Below the pieces are notes generated by a model, which was given only the letters and a program-made list of their open reading frames with translations, was not told the origin of the DNA and ran no database searches. A DNA stretch of 43,433 nt from assembly GCA_021648085.1 (NCBI GenBank), contig JAKITS010000001.1, positions 1-43,433 on the forward strand. Reading direction: 5' to 3'. The translations under genes and the position numbers were made by a program. The DNA is from Candidatus Magasanikiibacteriota bacterium (GTDB lineage Bacteria > Patescibacteriota > Patescibacteriia > Magasanikbacterales > UBA922). Positions 32,105 through 43,433 of the stretch are shown in pieces (position 1 is the first letter of the stretch; each line of letters begins with the position of its first letter).

Positions 32105-32638
32105 TTAAAGTGAACAAGTTCCTTTATTATTACCATCTGAATTTACGAGAGAAAAGGAGTCTGGCGGAGAAAAAATTACAAGTGGAGAGTCAACAGGTTT
32201 ATTGTTTAGTGTTTTCTCACAAAACACCAAACATTCTCCGTCAACTTCATTTATAGAACAAGTTCTCCACTCACACTGTCCACCATTTGGACAACACCAG
32301 AAGTTATTATTCAACCATTCATAATCAGCACAAGGGCTAACCACAACCTCATCCTCTACCACATCCACGTTAGTCGTGTTTGTAGTATCGATTTCGGTCG
32401 CGTCGGCGGTATCACCAACAAATTCGTTGGCAACATCCGAACCATCTACCATATCGGTAGGTGGGTTTGCATTATCACAGCCAGCAAGCAATACGCTCAT
32501 CACTGTGACAAAAAGCATAGTAAAAATGCAACCGATTAGCCAAATCGTAAAGGGGTAACTAGCCTCCAAAGCCACAACGGCTACGGAGGGGACACGGCGA
32601 TGCTTCGAGTAAAAAGGATGTCCTTTTTGATGTTTCAT
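32105..32638 (-). CDS. Lipoprotein with a C-terminal 7-Cys module
   Basis: AAGGAGaaaatcATG at 32638 and lipobox VLLAGC. The C-terminus reads C-x11-CC-x5-C-x4-C-x8-C-x3-C (CADYEWLNNNFWCCPNGGQCEWRTCSINEVDGECLVFC). The longer ORF to 32794 would include the promoter and leader. Confidence 0.7.
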   Translation of the reverse strand: MKHQKGHPFYSKHRRVPSVAVVALEASYPFTIWLIGCIFTMLFVTVMSVLLAGCDNANPPTDMVDGSDVANEFVGDTADATEIDTTNTTNVDVVEDEVVVSPCADYEWLNNNFWCCPNGGQCEWRTCSINEVDGECLVFCEKTLNNKPVDSPLVIFSPPDSFSLVNSDGNNKGTCSL

Positions 32639-32731
32639 GATTTTCTCCTTTGTTTTCCCACAATTCTTGTGGGTTTTTCCGTTTTTGTAAATAACCCCTC
32701 TCGGGGCTAAATGTAAATGAACTATTACTAA

Positions 32732-32760
32732 AATATAGCATATTTTACTACTTTTGTCAA
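32732..32760 (-). promoter_or_regulatory. Strong promoter of the lipoprotein gene
   Basis: Minus strand: TTGACA (rc 32755-32760), 17-nt spacer, TGcTATATT (rc 32732-32740). Confidence 0.5.
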
Positions 32761-32837
32761 GGTTTTTGGAGTAAAAAGTCTTCAAAAAAGTCAAAAGTCT
32801 ATAAAGTTTGTAAAGTGAAAAGTTAGAAAACCTGCAT

Positions 32838-32926: not shown

Positions 32927-32976
32927 ACAGGGGGGGTCGAAAGTTTATAAAGTCCATAAAGTATAAAGTTTTTTTT

Positions 32977-33061
32977 CGTCATTCTCAGCTCGACTGGGAA
33001 TCCAAAATCTACAAATGTAAACTATTTTTATATAAAAATACATAAACTTTAATAATTACAT
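32977..33061. repeat. Family-2 half element plus unique tail; direct repeat partner of 42074..42158
   Basis: Aligns gaplessly to 42074-42158 (offset 9097 nt) at roughly three-quarters identity, with a perfect 28-nt block at 33030-33057 = 42127-42154 (atataaaaatacataaactttaataatt). Confidence 0.8.
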
Positions 33062-33143: not shown

Positions 33144-33674
33144 TTATAAAGTTTGCGATTTAATCATTAAAGGCACATACCCCTCTTTAATAATGTCTGT
33201 AGGACTAGTACCTAACTTAAGGAGTAGTTCTTCTATTTTTTGTTCAATCTGCTTTCTATCATCCTCGTTACCCCTGCCTTCTATCTCAACAAAATAACCA
33301 AGATCTTTTATCAAATCAATATTAATTTCAAATGAGTTTAACATATATGTTTTCCTTGTCTTTTCTATCTTAACAACTTCAACATAATTATTATTTTTTA
33401 AAATACTTTCTAACTCATCAGGCTCATTTAATTCTAAGTCAACATCTGGCCATGCTGTATCATGTTTTTTAGATTTAGATTTAAAAGTTAGTTGATTGCC
33501 ATTTTCTGTTTTTCTAATGCGAAGAATTAAATTTCTGTCTATATCAGACACATGTTTAAAATAAATGTCAATTTGTCTTGACTCTTGAGAAAAAATTGCA
33601 TTTAAATCTTTCAATTTATTTACAAGATTAATTGCATTACTTTCTTTTATTTTAGCTCTGATTTCTATTTCCAT
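33144..33674 (-). CDS. CYTH-domain protein (class IV adenylyl cyclase CyaB / triphosphate tunnel metalloenzyme family)
   Basis: N-terminal MEIEIRAKI (the EXEXK signature), ILRIRK, LTFKSK, KTRKTY and YFVEIEG strands typical of the CYTH tunnel. 176 aa. Confidence 0.8.
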   Translation of the reverse strand: MEIEIRAKIKESNAINLVNKLKDLNAIFSQESRQIDIYFKHVSDIDRNLILRIRKTENGNQLTFKSKSKKHDTAWPDVDLELNEPDELESILKNNNYVEVVKIEKTRKTYMLNSFEINIDLIKDLGYFVEIEGRGNEDDRKQIEQKIEELLLKLGTSPTDIIKEGYVPLMIKSQTL

Positions 33675-33732
33675 ATTTATTTTGATTATTGAGTATATGT
33701 ATAATTTTAAATCACTTTACAATAAAAGACAA

Positions 33733-33768
33733 ATAAAAAAACCGCCATATGTAATATGCATAACGGTT
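33733..33768 (-). terminator. Intrinsic terminator after the radical SAM gene
   Basis: Minus strand: ACCGUUAUGcauauuaCAUAUGGCGGU (two G.U pairs) followed by seven U. Confidence 0.55.
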
Positions 33769-33773
33769 TTACT

Positions 33774-34742
33774 TTATTTCTTTAAGAGGTGTTCTTTAAA
33801 TTCAGAAAAAATTCTATGCTGAAAAAAATCTTCAAAAGGTAATACAAAAGGTTCTTTTTGCCTATGCAAACAACTTCTTACCTTCAGCCTGTCACCTTCT
33901 TTTTCTAATCTTGGTCCATAAACATACTCATGGCATTCACCATTTTGCTCAAGTGAACAGTTATTACAAATACTTGCAAGCATGAAAGGTCTAATTAATT
34001 TTATTTTAAAGATAAAGCCACTTTCTACTCTCATGGTTATTGAGAAAGAGGAGCTTCCATTTGTTACAATAGCTTCTACAGGAACTGCTTTTAGTGTCGT
34101 ACTCATTCTACTTAACGAAGCATACGATTCCTTTGGAATACCCAATTGATTCATGGCACGCCACTCTAAATTGTTAGTCTCACAGAATTCTGCAATTTCG
34201 AGTGCATCCAGTTCATTTGAGCCAACACATGTATTAACCTTAACAGATATCAAACTTGATATTTCTTTTAAAAAAAGAAATTGTGTAGTAATAATTGTCT
34301 TCTGACCCCATCTAATGGAGCGTGGGGGTTCCATTGTATTAGACAAAGAAGTAGGATTTAATGTGTGCAAACTAACATTTAAGCTTGACAGTCCACTTTC
34401 AATGCATTCAAGATATCGATCAAGATAAGTTACTCCGTTTGTGGTCATTTTTACATCAAAACCTTCTTGCTTGCATCTTTTTATGTATTTAATTACGTTT
34501 GGATGAATTGAAGGCTCACCACCAGTAAAATGAACTTCGCTAATATTCATTTCTCGTCTAAACTTATCAAGAATAGTTATCAATTTTTCTATATCATCTA
34601 TGGGTGTTGAATACTGATTGCCTTCCATGTGGCAAAAATGACAACTAAATTGACAAGGTGTGTGCAATTTAACACGAATTGTTTTCAATACTTTATATAC
34701 AATCCTACCTTGTTTCTCAAGTTCAGACAGTATATTTTTCAT
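33774..34742 (-). CDS. Radical SAM enzyme, MoaA-like (GTP 3',8-cyclase family architecture)
   Basis: CQFSCHFCHMEG (CxxxCxxC), VHFTGGEPS, KMTTNGV, LNVSLHTL and VKVNTCV. The C-terminal ICNNC...C...RLKVRSCL resembles the MoaA auxiliary-cluster tail. The ATG overlaps the kinase TGA (ATGA). Confidence 0.75.
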   Translation of the reverse strand: MKNILSELEKQGRIVYKVLKTIRVKLHTPCQFSCHFCHMEGNQYSTPIDDIEKLITILDKFRREMNISEVHFTGGEPSIHPNVIKYIKRCKQEGFDVKMTTNGVTYLDRYLECIESGLSSLNVSLHTLNPTSLSNTMEPPRSIRWGQKTIITTQFLFLKEISSLISVKVNTCVGSNELDALEIAEFCETNNLEWRAMNQLGIPKESYASLSRMSTTLKAVPVEAIVTNGSSSFSITMRVESGFIFKIKLIRPFMLASICNNCSLEQNGECHEYVYGPRLEKEGDRLKVRSCLHRQKEPFVLPFEDFFQHRIFSEFKEHLLKK

Positions 34743-35338
34743 AATACACCTACTTTTTGCTGTTGTTCATTCAATATTGATTTAACAGAATTGAAAACAC
34801 TTTCTTCAGTCTTTTTCGTTGTATCTATTACATAAAACACGTTTTTAAGAGACATGAAATATAATTGTGCTCTATTTAATACAAACTCATCTAGATGGGT
34901 ATATTTTTGTTTTTTAATTTCGCGTTTCCAAATTCTTCTATTTCGTTCTCGTGGGTCACAGGTAAGTAGTATACTTATGTTAGGTGTTATTATAGGAAGT
35001 AAATTGATATCAACACAATCAACAATAACACCCATAACTTTATGCATTATTATTATCGAGTATATATAACGATCAGCAAATACCTTATGTCCTGCATTTA
35101 ATAATGTTGCTAATTCTTTTTGAAACGCAATAACACATGTAATATAGAAGTAAAATCGTACTTCTGGATACTTTAGCAACTCCACTCGTAGTCTAATACT
35201 TTTAAATAATTCTAGCATTGTGTATAAGTAATAATAACCAAGCTCTTCTTCAAGTTTTTTAGCTAGTGTGGTTTTTCCAACTCCGTCGACACCTTCAATA
35301 ACTACAAAATTATAGAACTTTGTTTGTGTACACGTGAT
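34739..35338 (-). CDS. Thymidylate-kinase-like P-loop nucleotide kinase; start codon unresolved
   Basis: The frame is open from 35344. The P-loop FVVIEGVDGVGKTTLAKKLEEELG (35249-35320) lies upstream of the first in-frame ATG/GTG/TTG (35218). ADRYIYS and a basic LID-like DPRERNRRIWKRE follow. GGGAGGA SD at 35339-35345. Confidence 0.6.
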   Translation of the reverse strand: MTCTQTKFYNFVVIEGVDGVGKTTLAKKLEEELGYYYLYTMLELFKSIRLRVELLKYPEVRFYFYITCVIAFQKELATLLNAGHKVFADRYIYSIIIMHKVMGVIVDCVDINLLPIITPNISILLTCDPRERNRRIWKREIKKQKYTHLDEFVLNRAQLYFMSLKNVFYVIDTTKKTEESVFNSVKSILNEQQQKVGVL

Positions 35339-35351
35339 TCCTCCCTATTCT

Positions 35352-35571: not shown

Positions 35572-36180
35572 ATGTTTAAAGAAAAAAGTGGTATTATATT
35601 ATTTGTTTTATTGTCTGCATTTATAATTGGAGGAATTTTTATTTTGTTTAATGTTTTTCAAGATGTGGAAGAGTGGGGAAGTGAGGAAGTTGATAGCGTT
35701 GTAGTAGTAGAAACAGAAAAAAACGATGAAGAAGAAAAACCAAAAGAAGATATTATTGAAATAGTAACCTCCACTATAGAAAATATTGAAGTTGTAGAAA
35801 AAGAAATAATTGTGGAGAAAATAGTAGAAAAAGTGGTGTATATAGAAAAAGAGGTAGAAAAAAAAATAGAAAAACCTATTGAAAAGAATTTAAAACCAGT
35901 TGTAAAAGCCGAGCTTGCTGTATGTTCAGATGATATGCGCTTTCAATGTTGGGATTTACTAACTTGCGAAGAAAATGGAGAGGGTTATGGATCACCAACG
36001 CTTTGGACTGCAAACAATTTGGAGGAGGTGGCGCCAGCTTGTGGACAGTGGACAACGGACTCTGCAAAACTTCCAACAAGTTGGAGTTGTTGTTGTGGTT
36101 ATAGTGAAGATTGGCAAGAAGAAGGTGGAAGTAAAGCGTGTTATTCACCAGTTTACACATCAAACCTAACTTTTGAATAA
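35572..36180 (+). CDS. Membrane-anchored protein: E/K/I/V low-complexity stalk plus one 'QCWD...CCCG' Cys module
   Basis: TM helix IILFVLLSAFIIGGIFILF, a stalk EKEIIVEKIVEKVVYIEKEVEKKIEK, and the module at about 35923-36159 (CSDDMRFQCWDLLTC...GYGSPTLW...SWSCCCGYSEDW...C). Confidence 0.7.
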   Translation: MFKEKSGIILFVLLSAFIIGGIFILFNVFQDVEEWGSEEVDSVVVVETEKNDEEEKPKEDIIEIVTSTIENIEVVEKEIIVEKIVEKVVYIEKEVEKKIEKPIEKNLKPVVKAELAVCSDDMRFQCWDLLTCEENGEGYGSPTLWTANNLEEVAPACGQWTTDSAKLPTSWSCCCGYSEDWQEEGGSKACYSPVYTSNLTFE

Positions 36181-36181
36181 T

Positions 36182-36922
36182 ATGTCAGACAAAAAGCTAA
36201 AAATTATTTTAACAATTATAATAGTTCCATTTTTAATTTGGGGATTGTTTACTTTACTCACAGTGCAAAATGAGGAGATAGAAGAAGTTCAAGAAGAAAA
36301 ACAAGAAGTCGTAATAGAAGAGTTAGATATAGAAATAATAGACCTAGAAGGTCCAAAACAAAAATATATAAATAAAACCCACGGTTTCTCTTTTGAGTTT
36401 CCTGATGAGATGGAATATATACCTTCTATTTATGTTAAAGATATTGAATTTATAAAGAATTATTTTAAGTTGGAAGAAAAAAAATGCTTAAAAAAAGATA
36501 AGCCTAATGTTTGTAGAATATTTCCAAATGGATTGAGTATACTTTTGGAAGTGGATTCATATCGTAATAACAAGTGCAATGTTAATTTGCTTAATAAGGA
36601 TATAACTTTTAATTTAAATTTGTATAGTAGTTTTGATAGAAATGTTAGATTACAAGTATTTAAAACAAAAAAAATAGATAATATAGAAATTAAAACAGCA
36701 CGAGTGGACGAGTTTGTAAAAAGAGAAAGTGGTATTGAATATGGTTATCATACAAAATTAAAGACTTTATTTTGTATCGATGATAAAATAATTAAATTTA
36801 CTTTAGAGGATAATTACGTGGAAAATGATGTGAATATAAATGGTATTAAAAATAAATACAATTTATCGTATGAATATTTTCAAGAAATAGTAAATTCATT
36901 GGAGTTTTTAAATAAAAAATAA
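36182..36922 (+). CDS. N-terminally anchored paralog 1 of a conserved-ends / variable-core family
   Basis: MSDKKLKIILTIIIVPFLIWGLFTLL, DLEGPKQKYINKTHGFSFEFPDE, C-terminal IVNSLEFL. The ATG at 36182 has the same aataatATGtcagacaaaa context as paralog 3. Confidence 0.7.
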   Translation: MSDKKLKIILTIIIVPFLIWGLFTLLTVQNEEIEEVQEEKQEVVIEELDIEIIDLEGPKQKYINKTHGFSFEFPDEMEYIPSIYVKDIEFIKNYFKLEEKKCLKKDKPNVCRIFPNGLSILLEVDSYRNNKCNVNLLNKDITFNLNLYSSFDRNVRLQVFKTKKIDNIEIKTARVDEFVKRESGIEYGYHTKLKTLFCIDDKIIKFTLEDNYVENDVNINGIKNKYNLSYEYFQEIVNSLEFLNKK

Positions 36923-36925
36923 TAT

Positions 36926-37696
36926 ATGTTAAATAAAAAATATAAAATTTTAATATTATTGTCCATATTATTATTTTCTGTTGGTTTGGTTTCTTTTTTA
37001 TTAACTAAAAATAATAATATTGTTAATACAGACAATGTTATAAAAGAATTAATAAAACAACCTTTAAATACAGAATTAGAAGTAAAATTAGTAGATTTGA
37101 AAGGTCCAAAACAAAAATACATAAATAAAACTTATGGATTTTCATTAGAGTTTTTAGATGAAATAGAACTTTTTAATAATAATTATAAAATTAACAATTT
37201 AAAAGAATCTTTTACAAACGAAAGGACTTGTTTAAAAGGGTCAAAAAATAGTAATTGTAATATTTTAGATAAAATATATAATTTCCGTCTTTTTTATTGG
37301 ATAGGCTTTGACCTAAATATGGAAAAAGAATTAGAGCAAATTTGCAATAATTCATTTATTGAAGAAAAAAATAGAGTTTATTTAAATGAGTATAAAAATT
37401 TAAACCAAAATAATAAATTTAACTTTAAAGAGATTGGTGGAAAAATTAATAATTTAAATTTTAAAGGAATAGAATTTAATAAAAAAATAATTGAACCAGT
37501 TGGAGGTCAGCCTGAAATTAGAGTAAAAACACACAGAAAAAACAGCGATATAAATATATATTTATGTTTAAATAAAGATACATTATTAAATTTTAATGGA
37601 AATATTAATACTTATATCGATGATACAAAAAGATTTAATATTTTGTATAAACAGATTTACGAAGTTGTAAATTCACTAGAATTATTATCGGAATAA
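36926..37696 (+). CDS. Paralog 2 of the same family
   Basis: TM anchor, DLKGPKQKYINKTYGFSLEFLDE, C-terminal VVNSLELLSE. Confidence 0.7.
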   Translation: MLNKKYKILILLSILLFSVGLVSFLLTKNNNIVNTDNVIKELIKQPLNTELEVKLVDLKGPKQKYINKTYGFSLEFLDEIELFNNNYKINNLKESFTNERTCLKGSKNSNCNILDKIYNFRLFYWIGFDLNMEKELEQICNNSFIEEKNRVYLNEYKNLNQNNKFNFKEIGGKINNLNFKGIEFNKKIIEPVGGQPEIRVKTHRKNSDINIYLCLNKDTLLNFNGNINTYIDDTKRFNILYKQIYEVVNSLELLSE

Positions 37697-37697
37697 T

Positions 37698-38390
37698 ATG
37701 TCAGACAAAAGACTTAAAATTATTTTAACAATTGTAATAGTCCCATTTTTAGTGTGGGGATTGTTTACTTTGCTTACAAAACAAGGAAGTAAGATAGAAG
37801 AAACCCAAGAGCAACAACAAGAGGTTGCAATAGAAGAGTTAGATATAGAAATAATAGACCTAGAAGGTCCAAAACAAAAATATATAAATAAAACCCACGG
37901 TTTCTCTTTTGAATTTCCTGATGAGGTTGAGTATCAAGATTTTGGAAAACCAGATTATGCAGACTATTATGTGTTTAATTTGGCAAATAAAGAGTGTATG
38001 CAGTTTGACGAGTGTGGAACTATGGGAATTTATAATGAATGGTTAAACTATTCTATAAACATTCACAATTTGCTTGATAGTGAAAAATGTAATCAAGAAT
38101 TTATTGATAAAAAAATAAGTTACGACACAGGACTTATTGATGGTGAGTATGTTCAAGTTGTTGAATCTTTGAAAACAATAGAAAATGAGAATTTCTTGAT
38201 TAAAGAGCTTTTATATACAAGTAATTATGAAAGTCCTGGTACTTTTATGTCTGCTTATATTTGTTTGGATAATAATTATATTTATTTGCAAGGTGTTAGT
38301 GATATAAACATAAAAGAAGCCGAAAAATTTAATCCTTTGCATAAAGAATTTGAAGAAATTATAAATTCATTAGAATTGCTGTCTAATTAA
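37698..38390 (+). CDS. Paralog 3 of the same family
   Basis: MSDKRLKIILTIVIVPFLVWGLFTLL, an identical DLEGPKQKYINKTHGFSFEFPDE, C-terminal IINSLELLSN. Nt 37829-37912 are identical to 36313-36396. Confidence 0.7.
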   Translation: MSDKRLKIILTIVIVPFLVWGLFTLLTKQGSKIEETQEQQQEVAIEELDIEIIDLEGPKQKYINKTHGFSFEFPDEVEYQDFGKPDYADYYVFNLANKECMQFDECGTMGIYNEWLNYSINIHNLLDSEKCNQEFIDKKISYDTGLIDGEYVQVVESLKTIENENFLIKELLYTSNYESPGTFMSAYICLDNNYIYLQGVSDINIKEAEKFNPLHKEFEEIINSLELLSN

Positions 38391-38486
38391 GACGGACTTC
38401 TTTTACAAAATATCTAGCTTGTAGGTATTTTGTAGTAAGGAGGTAGGCTCTTTACAATCTATGTAAACAGAACAGAGAATGGGAAG

Positions 38487-40925
38487 ATGAAAACAAAAAA
38501 AGCGTTTCTGTGTATTTTTAGCTGTTTTTTATTTTTTAGCTGTGAATTTCTAGATTACAAAGAAAAAGATGGGATTTTACCACAAATAGATGATGGAAAA
38601 GGTGGAAACTATTTTGAGGATACCGGAGAATTGACTTCTTCTGGGACTAATTTTGAGGCACCTTGGGCTCCTGGAGATGAGTGGAATTATGGTGGTGGTT
38701 GGTGTTCAAATGTTAATAATCCTAAATATGAAAGTAGCGCTCATTTTGTAGGTAAAAAAGATAGAAACTGTATTGATATAAATTATATTAATAAAGGTAA
38801 TAGTGATTTGGGAATGCCTTTTTTTGCAGTTTTCGATGGTTGTGTTGTAAAAAATGAATTAAGTGGTGGTTATGGAAATTTATTGATTATTCAATCTTCT
38901 GAAGATAAAAATATTCAGTTCAAAATGGGTCATCACGATGAGATTAGTTTTTTAAAGGTTGGCGAATGTGTAAAAAAAGGTCAAATAATTAGTTATTGTG
39001 GCTCTAAGGGGGATTCTACTTTTGCACATGGTCATTATTGTATTGAAGAAAAACAAAACGGAGTTTATTCATCAATTCCATTTAATAAAATTGGTGAACA
39101 TGATTATAGCGAAAAGGATTGTTTAAAAGGTGATATTATAAACATAAAATCAACAAACGACTTCGAATTCAAAAGAATAGAAGAGGAATTTGGCACAAAC
39201 TTTTTTGGTGATATTTTGTATAATAATTTAGGTTATAGAGGAATTCATTGGTATTACGATTTTGTTGTAAATGGAAGCACATCATTTTCATCAACAAACC
39301 AAAATAATGTCCTAATTCAAGATTGGCAAAATTACACAGAAAATCGTCGCTCGGCGATTGTCTACGATGTACTTCATGGTGCTCGCAGGGGTTATGTTGT
39401 TCACTCTGGTTTTGTAGAAGATCCAAACCACGGTTGGCTTCAAGATTCAAGCGGTGTAAACACCTCGGGTCCTCGCTCAAAACTTGGCGTTCCATTATCA
39501 AATGAATTTGTAGAAAATGGAAGAACTTATCAAAACTTTATGTTTGGGTATCTGAGTTGGAAATATGGTTATGGTGTGTCTTATCAGGAGTATCCTACAG
39601 ATGGATATCCTGTTGGTGAAGTCTCACTGGACTTGGCAAATGATACAAAAACTCTAACAGAAAAAATAAAAGTACAAGATTATCAATATGCAGTAAATTG
39701 GAGTAAAAAGTTTTCTTATCTTTTTGTAGACGCTTACAACAAAAGTCAAAAAGATGGATATTGGCCAGGGTTTACAGTTTATAATAATGTTACAAATGAG
39801 GCGGCTGTGGATTATATTTATAGTTATCCAAATTACTATAAGTATTTTATTCAGGAATTTTACAATTCGCACAAGGCTTTTTTGAAAAATTCTACAATAA
39901 TTTATGACCCAAATAATAACACCAGTTTAATTACAAATAATTCAGAAATTTTAGGTGGAGATAACAAAGCTTATGTTGTTAAAGGTGGGTTTTGGAATTT
40001 GTATAAACAAATATATATAAACGGGCAAGATGCTTTTGATTTTTGTGGTGCACCAGTAATGGGTGAAAGTAGAGATGTTCCTTATTGGGTTCAAGAAAAA
40101 GCTGGAGGAGTCAAATCTTACCAGATTTTTGAAAGATGTTTTTTGACTTGGGGTATTACACAAAATATAAATGTATATATTTATAACGGTGGACTTTTCG
40201 ATTGTTATAATTTTACGGAAAATGTAAATAACCCAACAAATTATATAGTCTCACAATGTGATATATTAGAGCCTTGCACAGAAAATGAAGGGCAATATAA
40301 CGCAGATTTGGGTGATTATTGTGATGAATTTCAACAACTTTATTGTTGGGATGCACAAACTTGTGATGGAAGTGGTTATTTTAGTCCAGATATTTGGAGT
40401 CCAGTACTTCCAGAAGAATTTCCTCCAAAATGTGTCTCAAGTTATGGTTTAGAAATACAATATCCAGAAAGTTGGGAATGTTGTTGTGGTTTTCCTATAG
40501 ATTGGGATGGAAGCGGTGGAAATAATTGTGTGGAAAAATGGGGAGAATATGGTGATGTTGAGCTTGTCGGCACAGCACCAGATCTCGAACCTGAACCTGA
40601 ACCAGATCCACCTCCTCCTACGCAAGAACCAGAACCAAATCCTCCAGCACCTGAACCAGAGATAAACTGTCCTCGAACTTGTCTGCCGGGTATGAAATTT
40701 CAATGTTGGGATATGTTGTCGTGTGAAAATTATGGAAGTGGGTATGGATCGCCCCCTCTTTGGACCAGTGATTGTTATTCGGACACTCCTCCAAATTGTG
40801 GAAATTGGAGTGGCGAACAAGACAAAAAGCCAACATATTGGCAGTGTTGTTGTGGTTATGATATTGAATGGATGGATGGTCAGAACAATGCTTGTAGGTC
40901 TTCTGTTTACAATTCCTTTAATTAA
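38487..40925 (+). CDS. Secreted or lipid-anchored M23/LytM-like peptidase with LGFP-like repeats and two C-terminal 'QCWD...CCCG' modules
   Basis: Signal peptide ending in FLFFSC. M23-like core at about 38664-39056 (CIDI...GGYGNLLII...VKKGQIISYCGSKGDSTFAHGHY). LGFP-like SKLGVPLSNEFVENGRTYQNFMFGYLSW and GAPVMGES...YQIFERCFLTW. Modules at 40320-40529 and 40680-40910 are joined by a PEPEPDPPPPTQEPEPNPPAPEPE linker. Confidence 0.7.
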   Translation: MKTKKAFLCIFSCFLFFSCEFLDYKEKDGILPQIDDGKGGNYFEDTGELTSSGTNFEAPWAPGDEWNYGGGWCSNVNNPKYESSAHFVGKKDRNCIDINYINKGNSDLGMPFFAVFDGCVVKNELSGGYGNLLIIQSSEDKNIQFKMGHHDEISFLKVGECVKKGQIISYCGSKGDSTFAHGHYCIEEKQNGVYSSIPFNKIGEHDYSEKDCLKGDIINIKSTNDFEFKRIEEEFGTNFFGDILYNNLGYRGIHWYYDFVVNGSTSFSSTNQNNVLIQDWQNYTENRRSAIVYDVLHGARRGYVVHSGFVEDPNHGWLQDSSGVNTSGPRSKLGVPLSNEFVENGRTYQNFMFGYLSWKYGYGVSYQEYPTDGYPVGEVSLDLANDTKTLTEKIKVQDYQYAVNWSKKFSYLFVDAYNKSQKDGYWPGFTVYNNVTNEAAVDYIYSYPNYYKYFIQEFYNSHKAFLKNSTIIYDPNNNTSLITNNSEILGGDNKAYVVKGGFWNLYKQIYINGQDAFDFCGAPVMGESRDVPYWVQEKAGGVKSYQIFERCFLTWGITQNINVYIYNGGLFDCYNFTENVNNPTNYIVSQCDILEPCTENEGQYNADLGDYCDEFQQLYCWDAQTCDGSGYFSPDIWSPVLPEEFPPKCVSSYGLEIQYPESWECCCGFPIDWDGSGGNNCVEKWGEYGDVELVGTAPDLEPEPEPDPPPPTQEPEPNPPAPEPEINCPRTCLPGMKFQCWDMLSCENYGSGYGSPPLWTSDCYSDTPPNCGNWSGEQDKKPTYWQCCCGYDIEWMDGQNNACRSSVYNSFN

Positions 40926-40964
40926 AAATAATACCCTGCATACAAAATGCAGGGTATTTTTTTA
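40926..40964. terminator. Bidirectional terminator between convergent genes
   Basis: ATACCCTGCATacaaaATGCAGGGTATttttttt. Confidence 0.8.
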
Positions 40965-41444
40965 CCAAGGAGAACATGATATTGGTGTCGATGGGTACGG
41001 GTGTGGAGGTCCATCTGGATTGTTTGGAGGTGATCCTGGTATTGGTGGATCTGTAGGTGGAGGTAGTGGAGGTAGTCCAAACTCATTATCATTTTGAATA
41101 CCAGTCCAATTTGGAGTGCTATTTACAGATATATTTACCGAAACACCGTCACATGATAATACACATTGTTCATCTACTAACACAAAATTACATTCTGTGT
41201 ATTTACAATTTTGTTCAAGGTCTGTACAACAATTCATAGGTAGTTTTGTATTTTTGTCACATTTAGTTTTACTTATTTCTTTTTGGTCATTAGGATTATT
41301 TTCATCTAATTTGTTTCCATTGGAGTCGTTGTATTTAGAATTGTAAATATTTGTATCGTCAACTTTTGGAGCAAAATCTTCCTCAATGCACGATGTGCTA
41401 AATAATAAAAAAAATATTGAAAATAGTAATATAAACTTTTTCAT
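40962..41444 (-). CDS. Probable lipoprotein with the same 7-Cys module as 32105..32638 and a Pro-rich tail
   Basis: AAGGAGaaaaaATG. Signal LLFSIFFLLFSTSC. The module reads C-x9-CC-x6-C-x4-C-x8-C-x3-C (CDKNTKLPMNCCTDLEQNCKYTECNFVLVDEQCVLSC). C-terminal LPPLPPPTDPPIPGSPPNNPDGPPHPYP. Confidence 0.65.
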   Translation of the reverse strand: MKKFILLFSIFFLLFSTSCIEEDFAPKVDDTNIYNSKYNDSNGNKLDENNPNDQKEISKTKCDKNTKLPMNCCTDLEQNCKYTECNFVLVDEQCVLSCDGVSVNISVNSTPNWTGIQNDNEFGLPPLPPPTDPPIPGSPPNNPDGPPHPYPSTPISCSPW

Positions 41445-41862: not shown

Positions 41863-42063
41863 CTCGATCTATCTATTTCAACTCCACTGCGTTCCGCTCA
41901 ATATGATGTGCACAAAACACACGTCATCCTGAGCGAAATGGAGCGAAGCGGAATGAAGTCGAACGGATCTCGATTCAAAAACATTAGAACATAAAATATT
42001 CAAAGTTCTAATGATACAGCATCGAGATATTTCGACTCCACTGCGTTCCGCTCAATATTACGT
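41863..42063. repeat. Family-1 element preceded by an extra partial arm
   Basis: ACGTCATCCTGAGCGAAATGGAGCGAAGCGGAATGAAGTCGAACGGATCTCG (41921-41972) ... CGAGATATTTCGACTCCACTGCGTTCCGCTCAATATTACGT (42023-42063). The arm fragment TTTCAACTCCACTGCGTTCCGCTCAATATGATGTG lies upstream. Confidence 0.85.
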
Positions 42064-42073
42064 GAGTTATTGT

Positions 42074-42158
42074 TGTTATTCTCATACTAATTGGGAATTT
42101 AGAGTCTGCAAACTAGAACTGTTTTCATATAAAAATACATAAACTTTAATAATTGCAT
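42074..42158. repeat. Direct repeat partner of 32977..33061
   Basis: See feature 32977..33061. Confidence 0.8.
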
Positions 42159-42334: not shown

Positions 42335-43433
42335 ATGATTGGTGATGAGTTTAAAAAGATGCGAAAAATTCTAAAGCGTCTTAATTCTTTTTGTGTAAAA
42401 AGAAGACATCTAATTTCTAAGTTTGGTGTATTTTTGTTTGTTGCTACGATAGGTGTTTTTTTAATAATAAACCCTGTTTTTGCACAAAGTGCTACAGAAA
42501 GTGTCGCCAATTTTTTTATAGAAGGCGCTGCGAGAATGTTCTTAGTTCTGGCTAACTTTTTTATGGCTCTTACTATTTTTGCACTTAGATACTTTGTAGA
42601 AATAGCCGCGTACAATAACCATACTTTGGCAGATACTGTTGTTTTGGGTTGGACTATGGTTCGAGATGTCTCCAATATGTTTTTTGTAGTTATTCTACTT
42701 GCAATTGCATTTGGAACTATTTTAGGTTTAGATCAGTATGAGTGGAAAAAGTTAACAGTAAAATTAATTTTGGCAGCAATTTTTATAAACTTTAGTAAGT
42801 TAATCGCTGGAATAATTATAGACGCTGCCCATGTTTTTACAATTACATTTTTAAACGCAATAGTTGCAACTGCTGGTGGAAACATTATAAATATGTTTAA
42901 GTTGGGCGATATGATGACTTTTGCTGGTTCTGCTATGGACAATCCTTCAGAAGGAGATTTATTGTTAAAGGTTTTGGGTGGTTCAGTTGCAGCTTTTTTA
43001 TTTTCTTTTGTGGCACTACTTACTATTGGTGCTTACGCTGTGGTAATGCTTTCTCGTATGCTTGTGCTTTGGGTTTTGATAATCCTCTCACCGCTCGCAT
43101 ATCTTATGTCTGTTCTTCCTGCCACCAAAAAATATGCAGATGAATATTGGAAAGAATTTATAAAATATGTAATTGCAGGCCCTGTAATGGTGTTTTTCCT
43201 TTGGCTTGCTTTTGCAACTATGGGAAGTGGAAATATAAATCAAGAAGTGGCAAGTAATGTAAGTGTAGAAGGTGCAGCAATTAGTGATCAGGCACCGTCA
43301 AGTGGATCTAGAGAGTCAGAAATCAGCGCATCACTTAGTGCTGTCACAGAATGGGAGTCTATGGCTAGCTTTTTTATAGCTGTCGCATTTTTGTTTGTAG
43401 GTCTTCAGCAGGTAAGCAAGCTTGGTTTGGTAG
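42335..43433 (+). CDS. Polytopic membrane protein, TrbL/VirB6-like (partial, runs off the window)
   Basis: Not in the ORF track because it has no stop in the window. I translated it by hand from the ATG at 42335 and found no stop through 43432. It has a signal-like FGVFLFVATIGVFLIINPVFAQS, then at least 5 hydrophobic helices and LWVLIILSPLAYLMSVLPATKKYADEYWKEF, which recalls TrbL/VirB6 proteins. Confidence 0.4.
   Translation, partial: MIGDEFKKMRKILKRLNSFCVKRRHLISKFGVFLFVATIGVFLIINPVFAQSATESVANFFIEGAARMFLVLANFFMALTIFALRYFVEIAAYNNHTLADTVVLGWTMVRDVSNMFFVVILLAIAFGTILGLDQYEWKKLTVKLILAAIFINFSKLIAGIIIDAAHVFTITFLNAIVATAGGNIINMFKLGDMMTFAGSAMDNPSEGDLLLKVLGGSVAAFLFSFVALLTIGAYAVVMLSRMLVLWVLIILSPLAYLMSVLPATKKYADEYWKEFIKYVIAGPVMVFFLWLAFATMGSGNINQEVASNVSVEGAAISDQAPSSGSRESEISASLSAVTEWESMASFFIAVAFLFVGLQQVSKLGLV

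Follow-up and report, generated by a model that had tools for sequence, protein, structure and literature searches.

What is the small cysteine-rich module that two envelope proteins of a single gene cluster have in common, and what would it do there? The question is raised by a 43,433-nucleotide (nt) stretch of DNA, referred to here as the window, from a Candidatus Magasanikiibacteriota bacterium, in which three segments encode a common pattern built around a run of three consecutive cysteines (CCC). One copy of the module ends P0001, a protein of 202 amino acids (aa) with a putative membrane anchor and stalk, and two copies, A and B, end P0002, a predicted 812-aa lipoprotein with an M23 peptidase domain. 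The module is a real, undescribed domain without detectable sequence or fold relatives, set within a familiar kind of system. The ultra-small bacteria of the candidate phyla radiation (CPR) are thought to be attached to other cells, and the molecules with which they recognise and open the envelope of the partner are almost unknown.

Three copies on two exported proteins

The preliminary description of this DNA had placed the copies at 35923-36159, 40320-40529 and 40680-40910, and these coordinates are right, corresponding to C118-Y196 of P0001 and to C612-C681 and C732-N808 of P0002. The three segments are indeed homologous: their alignment has 23 invariant columns including eight Cys, and BLASTP of P0001 against P0002 gives a similarity far beyond chance with copy B (E 5e-27, 49% identity over 81 aa) and with copy A (E 3e-14). 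A chance resemblance or low-complexity artefact, for which nothing but the small size of the family can be said, has practically no likelihood and is refuted by these E values, by the conservation in orthologues and by purifying selection. Scanning the whole window in six frames with a hidden Markov model (HMM) returned these three copies only.

The module measures approximately 80 aa. Twelve distinct copies are known to us, belonging to three orthologous types (stalk protein, copy A and copy B) from about four lineages, and 18 of their columns are invariant, namely the eight Cys and ten others: the WD after the second Cys, a G, a Y, the SP, a W, the P of P-x-C, a further P and the W before CCC. 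The count of eight Cys given at the outset is correct for the P0001 module and for copy A, but not for copy B, which always has ten. Its extra residues are C728, situated four residues upstream of the start formerly assigned to the segment (three in P0009), and C763 inside it. Likewise, the pattern described as strict stands for the Cys scaffold, but not every copy has the G after CCC and the [DE]W that follows it, as the copy A of P0009, the most divergent of its type, reads CCCD and has no such W.

The features of the two carriers are as follows.

35572..36180, + strand: P0001 gene, encoding the 202-aa anchor-stalk-module protein (open reading frame (ORF) and translation; orthologues in relatives of 201-204 aa)
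35590..35655, + strand: predicted transmembrane anchor of P0001, aa 7-28, preceded by Lys (hydropathy)
35656..35907, + strand: Glu/Lys/Val/Ile-rich stalk of P0001, aa 29-112 (sequence)
35908..36177, + strand: module copy of P0001, aa 113-202, with its Cys core at 35923-36156 (alignments; HMM E 1e-39; ratio of non-synonymous to synonymous substitution rates (dN/dS) 0.12)
38487..40925, + strand: P0002 gene, encoding the 812-aa M23 lipoprotein (ORF; orthologues P0004, P0005, P0009, P0019 and P0020)
38487..38543, + strand: lipoprotein-type signal peptide of P0002, ending at Cys19 (FFSC) (hydrophobic leader and invariant Cys)
38736..39086, + strand: M23 peptidase domain of P0002, aa 84-200 (Pfam PF01551, PDB matches)
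39087..40286, + strand: middle region of P0002, 400 aa (no Pfam, NCBIfam or PDB match)
40302..40556, + strand: module copy A of P0002, aa 606-690, with its Cys core at 40320-40529 (alignments, HMM)
40557..40667, + strand: Pro/Glu-rich linker between copies A and B, aa 691-727 (alignment)
40668..40922, + strand: module copy B of P0002, aa 728-812, with ten Cys (alignments, HMM; dN/dS 0.12-0.15)

Both carriers appear to be exported envelope proteins, as the preliminary description had stated, P0001 by virtue of its transmembrane helix and P0002 by a hydrophobic leader with an invariant Cys at its end. P0001 starts with an N-terminal hydrophobic helix, whose best 19-residue hydropathy window (IILFVLLSAFIIGGIFILF) has a mean Kyte-Doolittle value of 3.04, and continues with a charged stalk of about 85 residues and the C-terminal module; by the positive-inside rule the anchor would be oriented with its N-terminus inside and its C-terminus outside. 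Such a build of anchor, spacer and tip resembles that of an adhesin. In P0002, Cys19 is invariant in four orthologues when the alignment is read by eye, with lipobox-like ends FFSC, LVVSC and VYGC, which makes it the likely site of lipidation. Ten more invariant Cys lie outside its modules in the alignment of orthologues. The assignment of P0002 to the M23 peptidases is correct (PF01551, E 1.1e-11, 45.2 bits against a cut-off of 28.7, aa 109-191), and LytM, lysostaphin and TagE are among the PDB sequence matches of the domain. The module is also, as first described, a C-terminal appendage of the M23 hydrolase with a Pro-rich linker; the Pro/Glu linker lies between copies A and B, and its length varies among orthologues, with 21 gapped columns in P0005 and almost no linker in P0009. 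The 400-aa middle region has no relatives outside the family, a word-indexed search of 5.8 billion clusters returning just the four clusters of orthologues. LGFP-like repeats, suspected there by eye, were dropped (no Pfam match at E<=1 and no PDB profile match).

A survey of CPR and other genomes, which the preliminary description had called for, found the module only on one M23 protein and one stalk protein of a very narrow clade. The word-indexed search with the P0001 module gave one cluster, of 201-204-aa orthologues, and the C-terminus and body of P0002 gave three or four clusters whose members are orthologues of 789-802 aa. With an eight-copy HMM profile, an exhaustive search through 1.84 billion representative proteins gave two at E<=0.001, both members of the carrier families, and a search of one genome per GTDB species gave a single 7.4-kb contig. 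Metagenomes of the Joint Genome Institute contributed five true loci and five false ones. The named source samples are groundwater metagenomes, and the module occurs in about four groundwater lineages only, all closely related.

Two observations accompany these searches. The single GTDB-representative carrier (L005, CAZHUL010000039.1, 7.4 kb) belongs to a metagenome-assembled genome labelled 'uncultured Gammaproteobacteria', and the contig shares its gene order with the CPR-type loci and is probably mis-binned. The five false loci (L011-L015), considered as distant relatives, were rejected as chance matches, their PTSWSCCCG being read antisense to a conserved gene of high GC content that encodes about 890 aa; this match is a reproducible false positive in soil metagenomes for pattern-based searches of the module.

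Predicted fold and the state of the cysteines

A profile match to a described domain, named in the preliminary description as what would refute it, was sought and none was found in Pfam, NCBIfam, PDB sequences, or the folds of PDB or BFVD. Pfam contains no family at E<=1 for P0001, none on the P0002 modules and, when each of the 12 copies is scanned by itself, none at E<=10. NCBIfam has nothing on the module, the matches to the P0001 stalk being insignificant (E 0.4-0.74), and PHROGs and PADLOC are equally empty for it. The best hit of a sequence-profile search of the PDB was eS31, not significant at E 0.32, and literature searches returned nothing on this module. A phage or defence origin was also considered and rejected, with PHROGs matches restricted to the M23 part of P0002 and nothing meaningful from PADLOC.

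The fold was predicted with AlphaFold, using copy B as query together with the 12-copy alignment, which gave a predicted local distance difference test score (pLDDT) of 78.2 and a predicted template modelling score (pTM) of 0.68, the five models ranging from 69 to 78 in pLDDT. A first run on a different copy had scored lower (pLDDT 63.8, pTM 0.55), with the same four-strand layout. In the model the module would be a small, mostly beta domain formed by four strands and one or two short helices, in which the W-x-CCC-G segment is predicted as the longest and central strand. As the side chains of neighbouring residues in a beta-strand face opposite ways, the CCC run would staple this strand to elements on both sides.

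The preliminary description had named a metal among the possible targets of binding. The number of Cys per module is always even (8, 8 and 10), and the two extra Cys are present jointly in every one of the four copies B and absent from the remaining eight copies, a perfect covariation as expected of an added disulfide. All modules lack His, and CxxC and CxxH are absent from the shared core. The Cys content of the exported proteins of the window reaches 3.4-5.6%, against 0.2-0.7% in the cytoplasmic housekeeping proteins GroEL, RF, KsgA and NusA. Export signals, even Cys numbers, the covarying pair and the lack of His and of a conserved CxxC together favour a disulfide-braced extracellular domain over a metal site. 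On these sequence features we consider that the module is probably held by four disulfides, five in copy B.

A metal-binding module, with Zn, Cu or a Fe-S cluster held by Cys thiolates including those of the CCC run, could be imagined from the eight invariant Cys in 80 residues, from the likeness of the run to metallothionein-like sites and from the fact that the sole, weak PDB sequence match is a zinc-ribbon ribosomal protein. This option is weakened by the same features, and also by the extracytoplasmic location and the insignificance of the eS31 match, and we regard it as very unlikely.

Selection, strain variation and possible function

The dN/dS ratios were computed between the window and two relatives. 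The P0001 module (0.12) and copy B (0.12-0.15) are under purifying selection, at values similar to that of the M23 domain (0.14, nearest relative); the P0001 stalk (0.33-0.41) and copy A (0.68-0.83) have higher ratios. The difference in rate between copies A and B is significant (Fisher p 0.007-0.009), and copy A keeps the whole scaffold.

Nine near-identical strain variants of the stalk protein differ in ten columns, every one of them within residues 107-195. Eight of these columns fall in the module and none at a scaffold position, and all four allele combinations are found in 25 of the 45 site pairs. Between two P0001 alleles the synonymous divergence dS is 0.40 in the module vs 0.06 in the stalk. 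The numbers are small, and the pattern suggests an exposed surface whose alleles recombine; an alternative source of the reshuffling could be chimeric metagenome assemblies.

Two orthologues of P0002 differ in the enzymatic part. P0019 (on contig L006) and P0020 (on L007; P0004/P0020) are identical at residues 1-40 and 35-62% identical in columns 41-240, which comprise the M23 head. From column 241 onwards, across the modules as well, their identity is 99-100%, which indicates a catalytic head exchanged on a constant body that carries the modules. Recombination may have swapped the heads, or the pair may represent two paralogous cassettes of a single population. The genes for the stalk protein, for one anchored protein of 23x aa and for the M23 protein are adjacent in every contig covering the region, and the flanks of this cassette vary between contigs while the cassette stays together, suggesting that the three genes form one operon-like unit inherited as such.

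Modular lysins offer the closest comparison. In the M23 enzymes lysostaphin, zoocin A and ALE-1 a C-terminal domain targets the cell wall, and SH3b, LysM and CBM modules play the targeting role in other lysins. Like the lysostaphin-type bacteriolysins (lysostaphin, ALE-1 and zoocin A; PDB 4LXC, 5NMY and 5KVP), which its M23 domain matches in PDB sequence searches with E 1e-6 to 6e-2, P0002 combines an M23 domain, a linker and a non-catalytic C-terminal module, and it shares with other lysins the exchangeable catalytic head on a constant body. P0002 differs from the lysostaphin type in that its module matches neither SH3b nor another described targeting domain, is rich in Cys and is present twice; in having a 400-aa orphan region between head and modules; and in being a predicted lipoprotein, not a free secreted bacteriocin, whose module also occurs on a separate stalk protein.

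A catalytic head followed by non-catalytic modules that determine its site of action is the architecture of modular lysins. The module most plausibly binds one ligand for both carriers. We propose, with even chances in our estimate, that it is a ligand-binding module for targeting or adhesion, analogous to the wall-targeting domains of the lysostaphin-type lysins. It would be displayed once at the tip of the membrane-anchored stalk protein and twice, with the Pro/Glu linker in between, at the distal end of the M23 lipoprotein, docking both on the same structure of the envelope or of a partner-cell surface, a wall glycan or other surface polymer. In this mechanism the module may direct the hydrolase to its target and give the stalk protein an adhesive tip. 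The targeting or binding role had been offered as an inference in the preliminary description and keeps that status, now with indirect support from the export signals, the purifying selection, the three-gene cassette, the swapped head on a constant body and the strain polymorphism concentrated in the module.

Small disulfide-rich carbohydrate-binding modules such as hevein/ChtBD1, with eight Cys, and CBM14 provide a second, looser analogy. Like these, the module is small, has eight Cys and conserved aromatics and is attached to a wall-active enzyme; unlike them, it has a different Cys spacing with a CCC triplet, and no sequence, profile or fold match connects it to them.

Several points weigh against the targeting role. 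The modules are strongly acidic, with 9-14 Asp+Glu vs 2-5 Lys+Arg, which is atypical of peptidoglycan-binding modules. Neither a ligand nor a binding pocket was identified for the module, no fold relative was found (Foldseek against PDB, best E 2.1 with a template modelling score of 0.30; against BFVD, best E 2.1), and the AlphaFold model is only moderately confident. Copy A, evolving much faster than copy B, may be partly relaxed, and no RNA runs were found that could show expression of the cassette.

A further point against it concerns the enzyme. H149/H150, at the place of the mid-domain catalytic His, and H181-G-H183 are invariant in four P0002 orthologues and align with the HxH of LytM. 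In the HxxxD zinc-ligand motif D97 is invariant, and the position of the first His, residue 93, is R in the window and in P0004, H in P0005 and D in P0009. As Arg replaces the canonical first His in P0002, the enzyme that the module would target might be non-catalytic. His86, Asp92 and Asp97 are invariant in the orthologues, forming H-x5-D-x-NCID (aa 84-98; window 38736-38780). In LasA/beta-lytic protease (M23A) the zinc-ligand His and Asp lie far apart in the sequence, and P0002 may resemble LasA in this, with His86 invariant and placed ten residues ahead of the equally invariant Asp97, and with the canonical position 93 variable; unlike LasA, its overall similarity is to M23B enzymes (LytM, lysostaphin). 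Its zinc site may have a LasA-like wide His-Asp spacing, or the enzyme may be impaired or weakened.

The occurrence of one module on two proteins of a single conserved cassette, at the extreme C-terminus of both, could also be explained by protein-protein docking, in which the copies bind each other or a protein scaffold that they share, for instance an S-layer or a pilus. As with cohesin and dockerin, the stalk protein would then retain the M23 lipoprotein in the envelope or set its position there. The P0001 module is nearest to copy B (47-51% identity) and both are equally strongly constrained, as docking partners might be. Each carrier is, however, already membrane-tethered and neither needs the other for its retention, and the strain polymorphism of the P0001 module comes without a visible matching change in copy B, which would be expected for a tightly co-evolving interface. 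We consider docking unlikely, though worth keeping in mind.

It is also conceivable that the module has no specific ligand and serves as a rigid, disulfide-knotted bead, a structural spacer or stabiliser, or as a regulatory pro-domain that masks the M23 site until processed. The lack of an identified binding site or fold relative, the many substitutions tolerated by copy A, and the arrangement of Pro-rich linker and bead, reminiscent of stalk architectures, would fit such a role. Nevertheless, the ten invariant non-Cys positions in the 12 copies, among them four Trp/Tyr, the Asp after the second Cys and the Y-x-SP loop, exceed structural need, and the stalk protein would be left without a functional part. 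The bead therefore seems improbable to us.

The targeting or adhesion role can be extended, at the price of a rather low likelihood, to a new disulfide-stapled fold by which an episymbiotic CPR bacterium would recognise its host, as part of a minimal 'attach-and-cut' device. The central strand may have its three consecutive Cys bonded to both faces of the sheet, the stalk protein may be an adhesin, and the M23 lipoprotein, with its exchangeable head, may open the partner wall at the attachment site; the reshuffling of module alleles between strains may then track variation of the host surface.

The locus is compact and experimentally tractable: an 80-residue, strain-variable module, which could be expressed by itself, is shared by an adhesin-like stalk and a wall peptidase with a swappable enzyme head. 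Should the module prove to bind a defined surface polymer, a target of a bacterium of this kind would be identified, and a new binding fold, small and rich in disulfides, would become known. Any lesson from it may be local, as the family is tiny (about four lineages, and no relatives in the 1.84 billion representative proteins), and Cys-rich appendages restricted to single lineages appear to be common among the wall hydrolases of CPR bacteria.

The cassette and its neighbours

In the window the cassette occupies 35572-40925 as five co-directional genes on the + strand, namely the P0001 gene, three tandem paralogues and the P0002 gene, separated by gaps of 1-3 nt plus one of 96 nt. Two further features belong to it.

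36182..38390, + strand: three tandem paralogues of about 246, 256 and 230 aa, each with a predicted N-terminal anchor (ORFs, repeat families D1/D2, synteny)
40930..40958, no strand assigned: strong bidirectional terminator hairpin with a 12-bp stem, closing the operon (sequence)

The paralogues correspond to the middle member of the conserved cassette, which is a single copy of 232 aa in the relatives. In the repeat families D1 and D2 the 5' parts of paralogues 1 and 3 have a DNA identity of 90-91%, against about 65% for paralogue 2, which suggests a recent duplication or gene conversion. Searches of Pfam, NCBIfam and PDB gave no family or structure match for these 23x-aa proteins. The P0002 gene has a peculiar start region: a strong AAGGAGG lies 44 nt upstream of its start and is followed by an ATG-TAA mini-ORF (38437-38466), and just a weak GGGAAG immediately precedes the actual start. 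The terminator stands between the P0002 gene and a convergent lipoprotein gene.

On L002 and L006 the cassette sits between two genes for Cys-rich lipoproteins, the same as in the window, and on L007 it is directly followed by homologues of the block at 19-32 kb of the window. The lipoproteins of the window (40962-41444 and 32105-32794, both on the - strand) have in common a seven-Cys module, C-x9-CC-x6-C-x4-C-x8-C-x3-C, which is conserved in relatives and is mostly followed by a Pro-rich tail ending in C-x-P-W. Kinship of this module with that of P0001 and P0002 was considered and rejected, hhalign giving a probability of 0.04%.

Patescibacteria carry type IV secretion loci with VirB1-like peptidoglycan hydrolases, some of which have Peptidase_M23 or LysM domains (PMC12102498). 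The present locus is similar to these in belonging to a CPR-type organism and in having an M23 envelope hydrolase with a gene for a polytopic membrane protein nearby. No VirB4, VirB6 or VirB1 signatures were found at the locus, and a link to type IV secretion is not supported. The polytopic neighbour, P0008, and the two next genes in L001 have no match in Pfam, PHROGs, PADLOC or PDB, and P0008 is not constantly linked to the cassette, which occurs in L007 without P0008 and the next genes. The P0008 gene runs from 42335 to 43433 on the + strand of the window and continues at L001 5716-8463; its product has 915 aa, is 83% identical in relatives and has no Pfam match at E<=10.

Between the gene for the 229-aa lipoprotein and the P0001 gene, the window contains kinase, radical-SAM and CYTH genes (33144-35347) that have no counterpart in L002, where a stretch of 1.3 kb without a called gene (1490-2826) takes their place. 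These genes and the cassette are flanked on both sides by a pair of 92-nt direct repeats (D3; 32970-33061 and 42067-42158), 76% identical and 9097 bp apart. A further repeat pair of 44 nt (D7) is found at 41867 and 42021, and the source contig of the window, 984 kb long, has a G+C content of about 25-38%.

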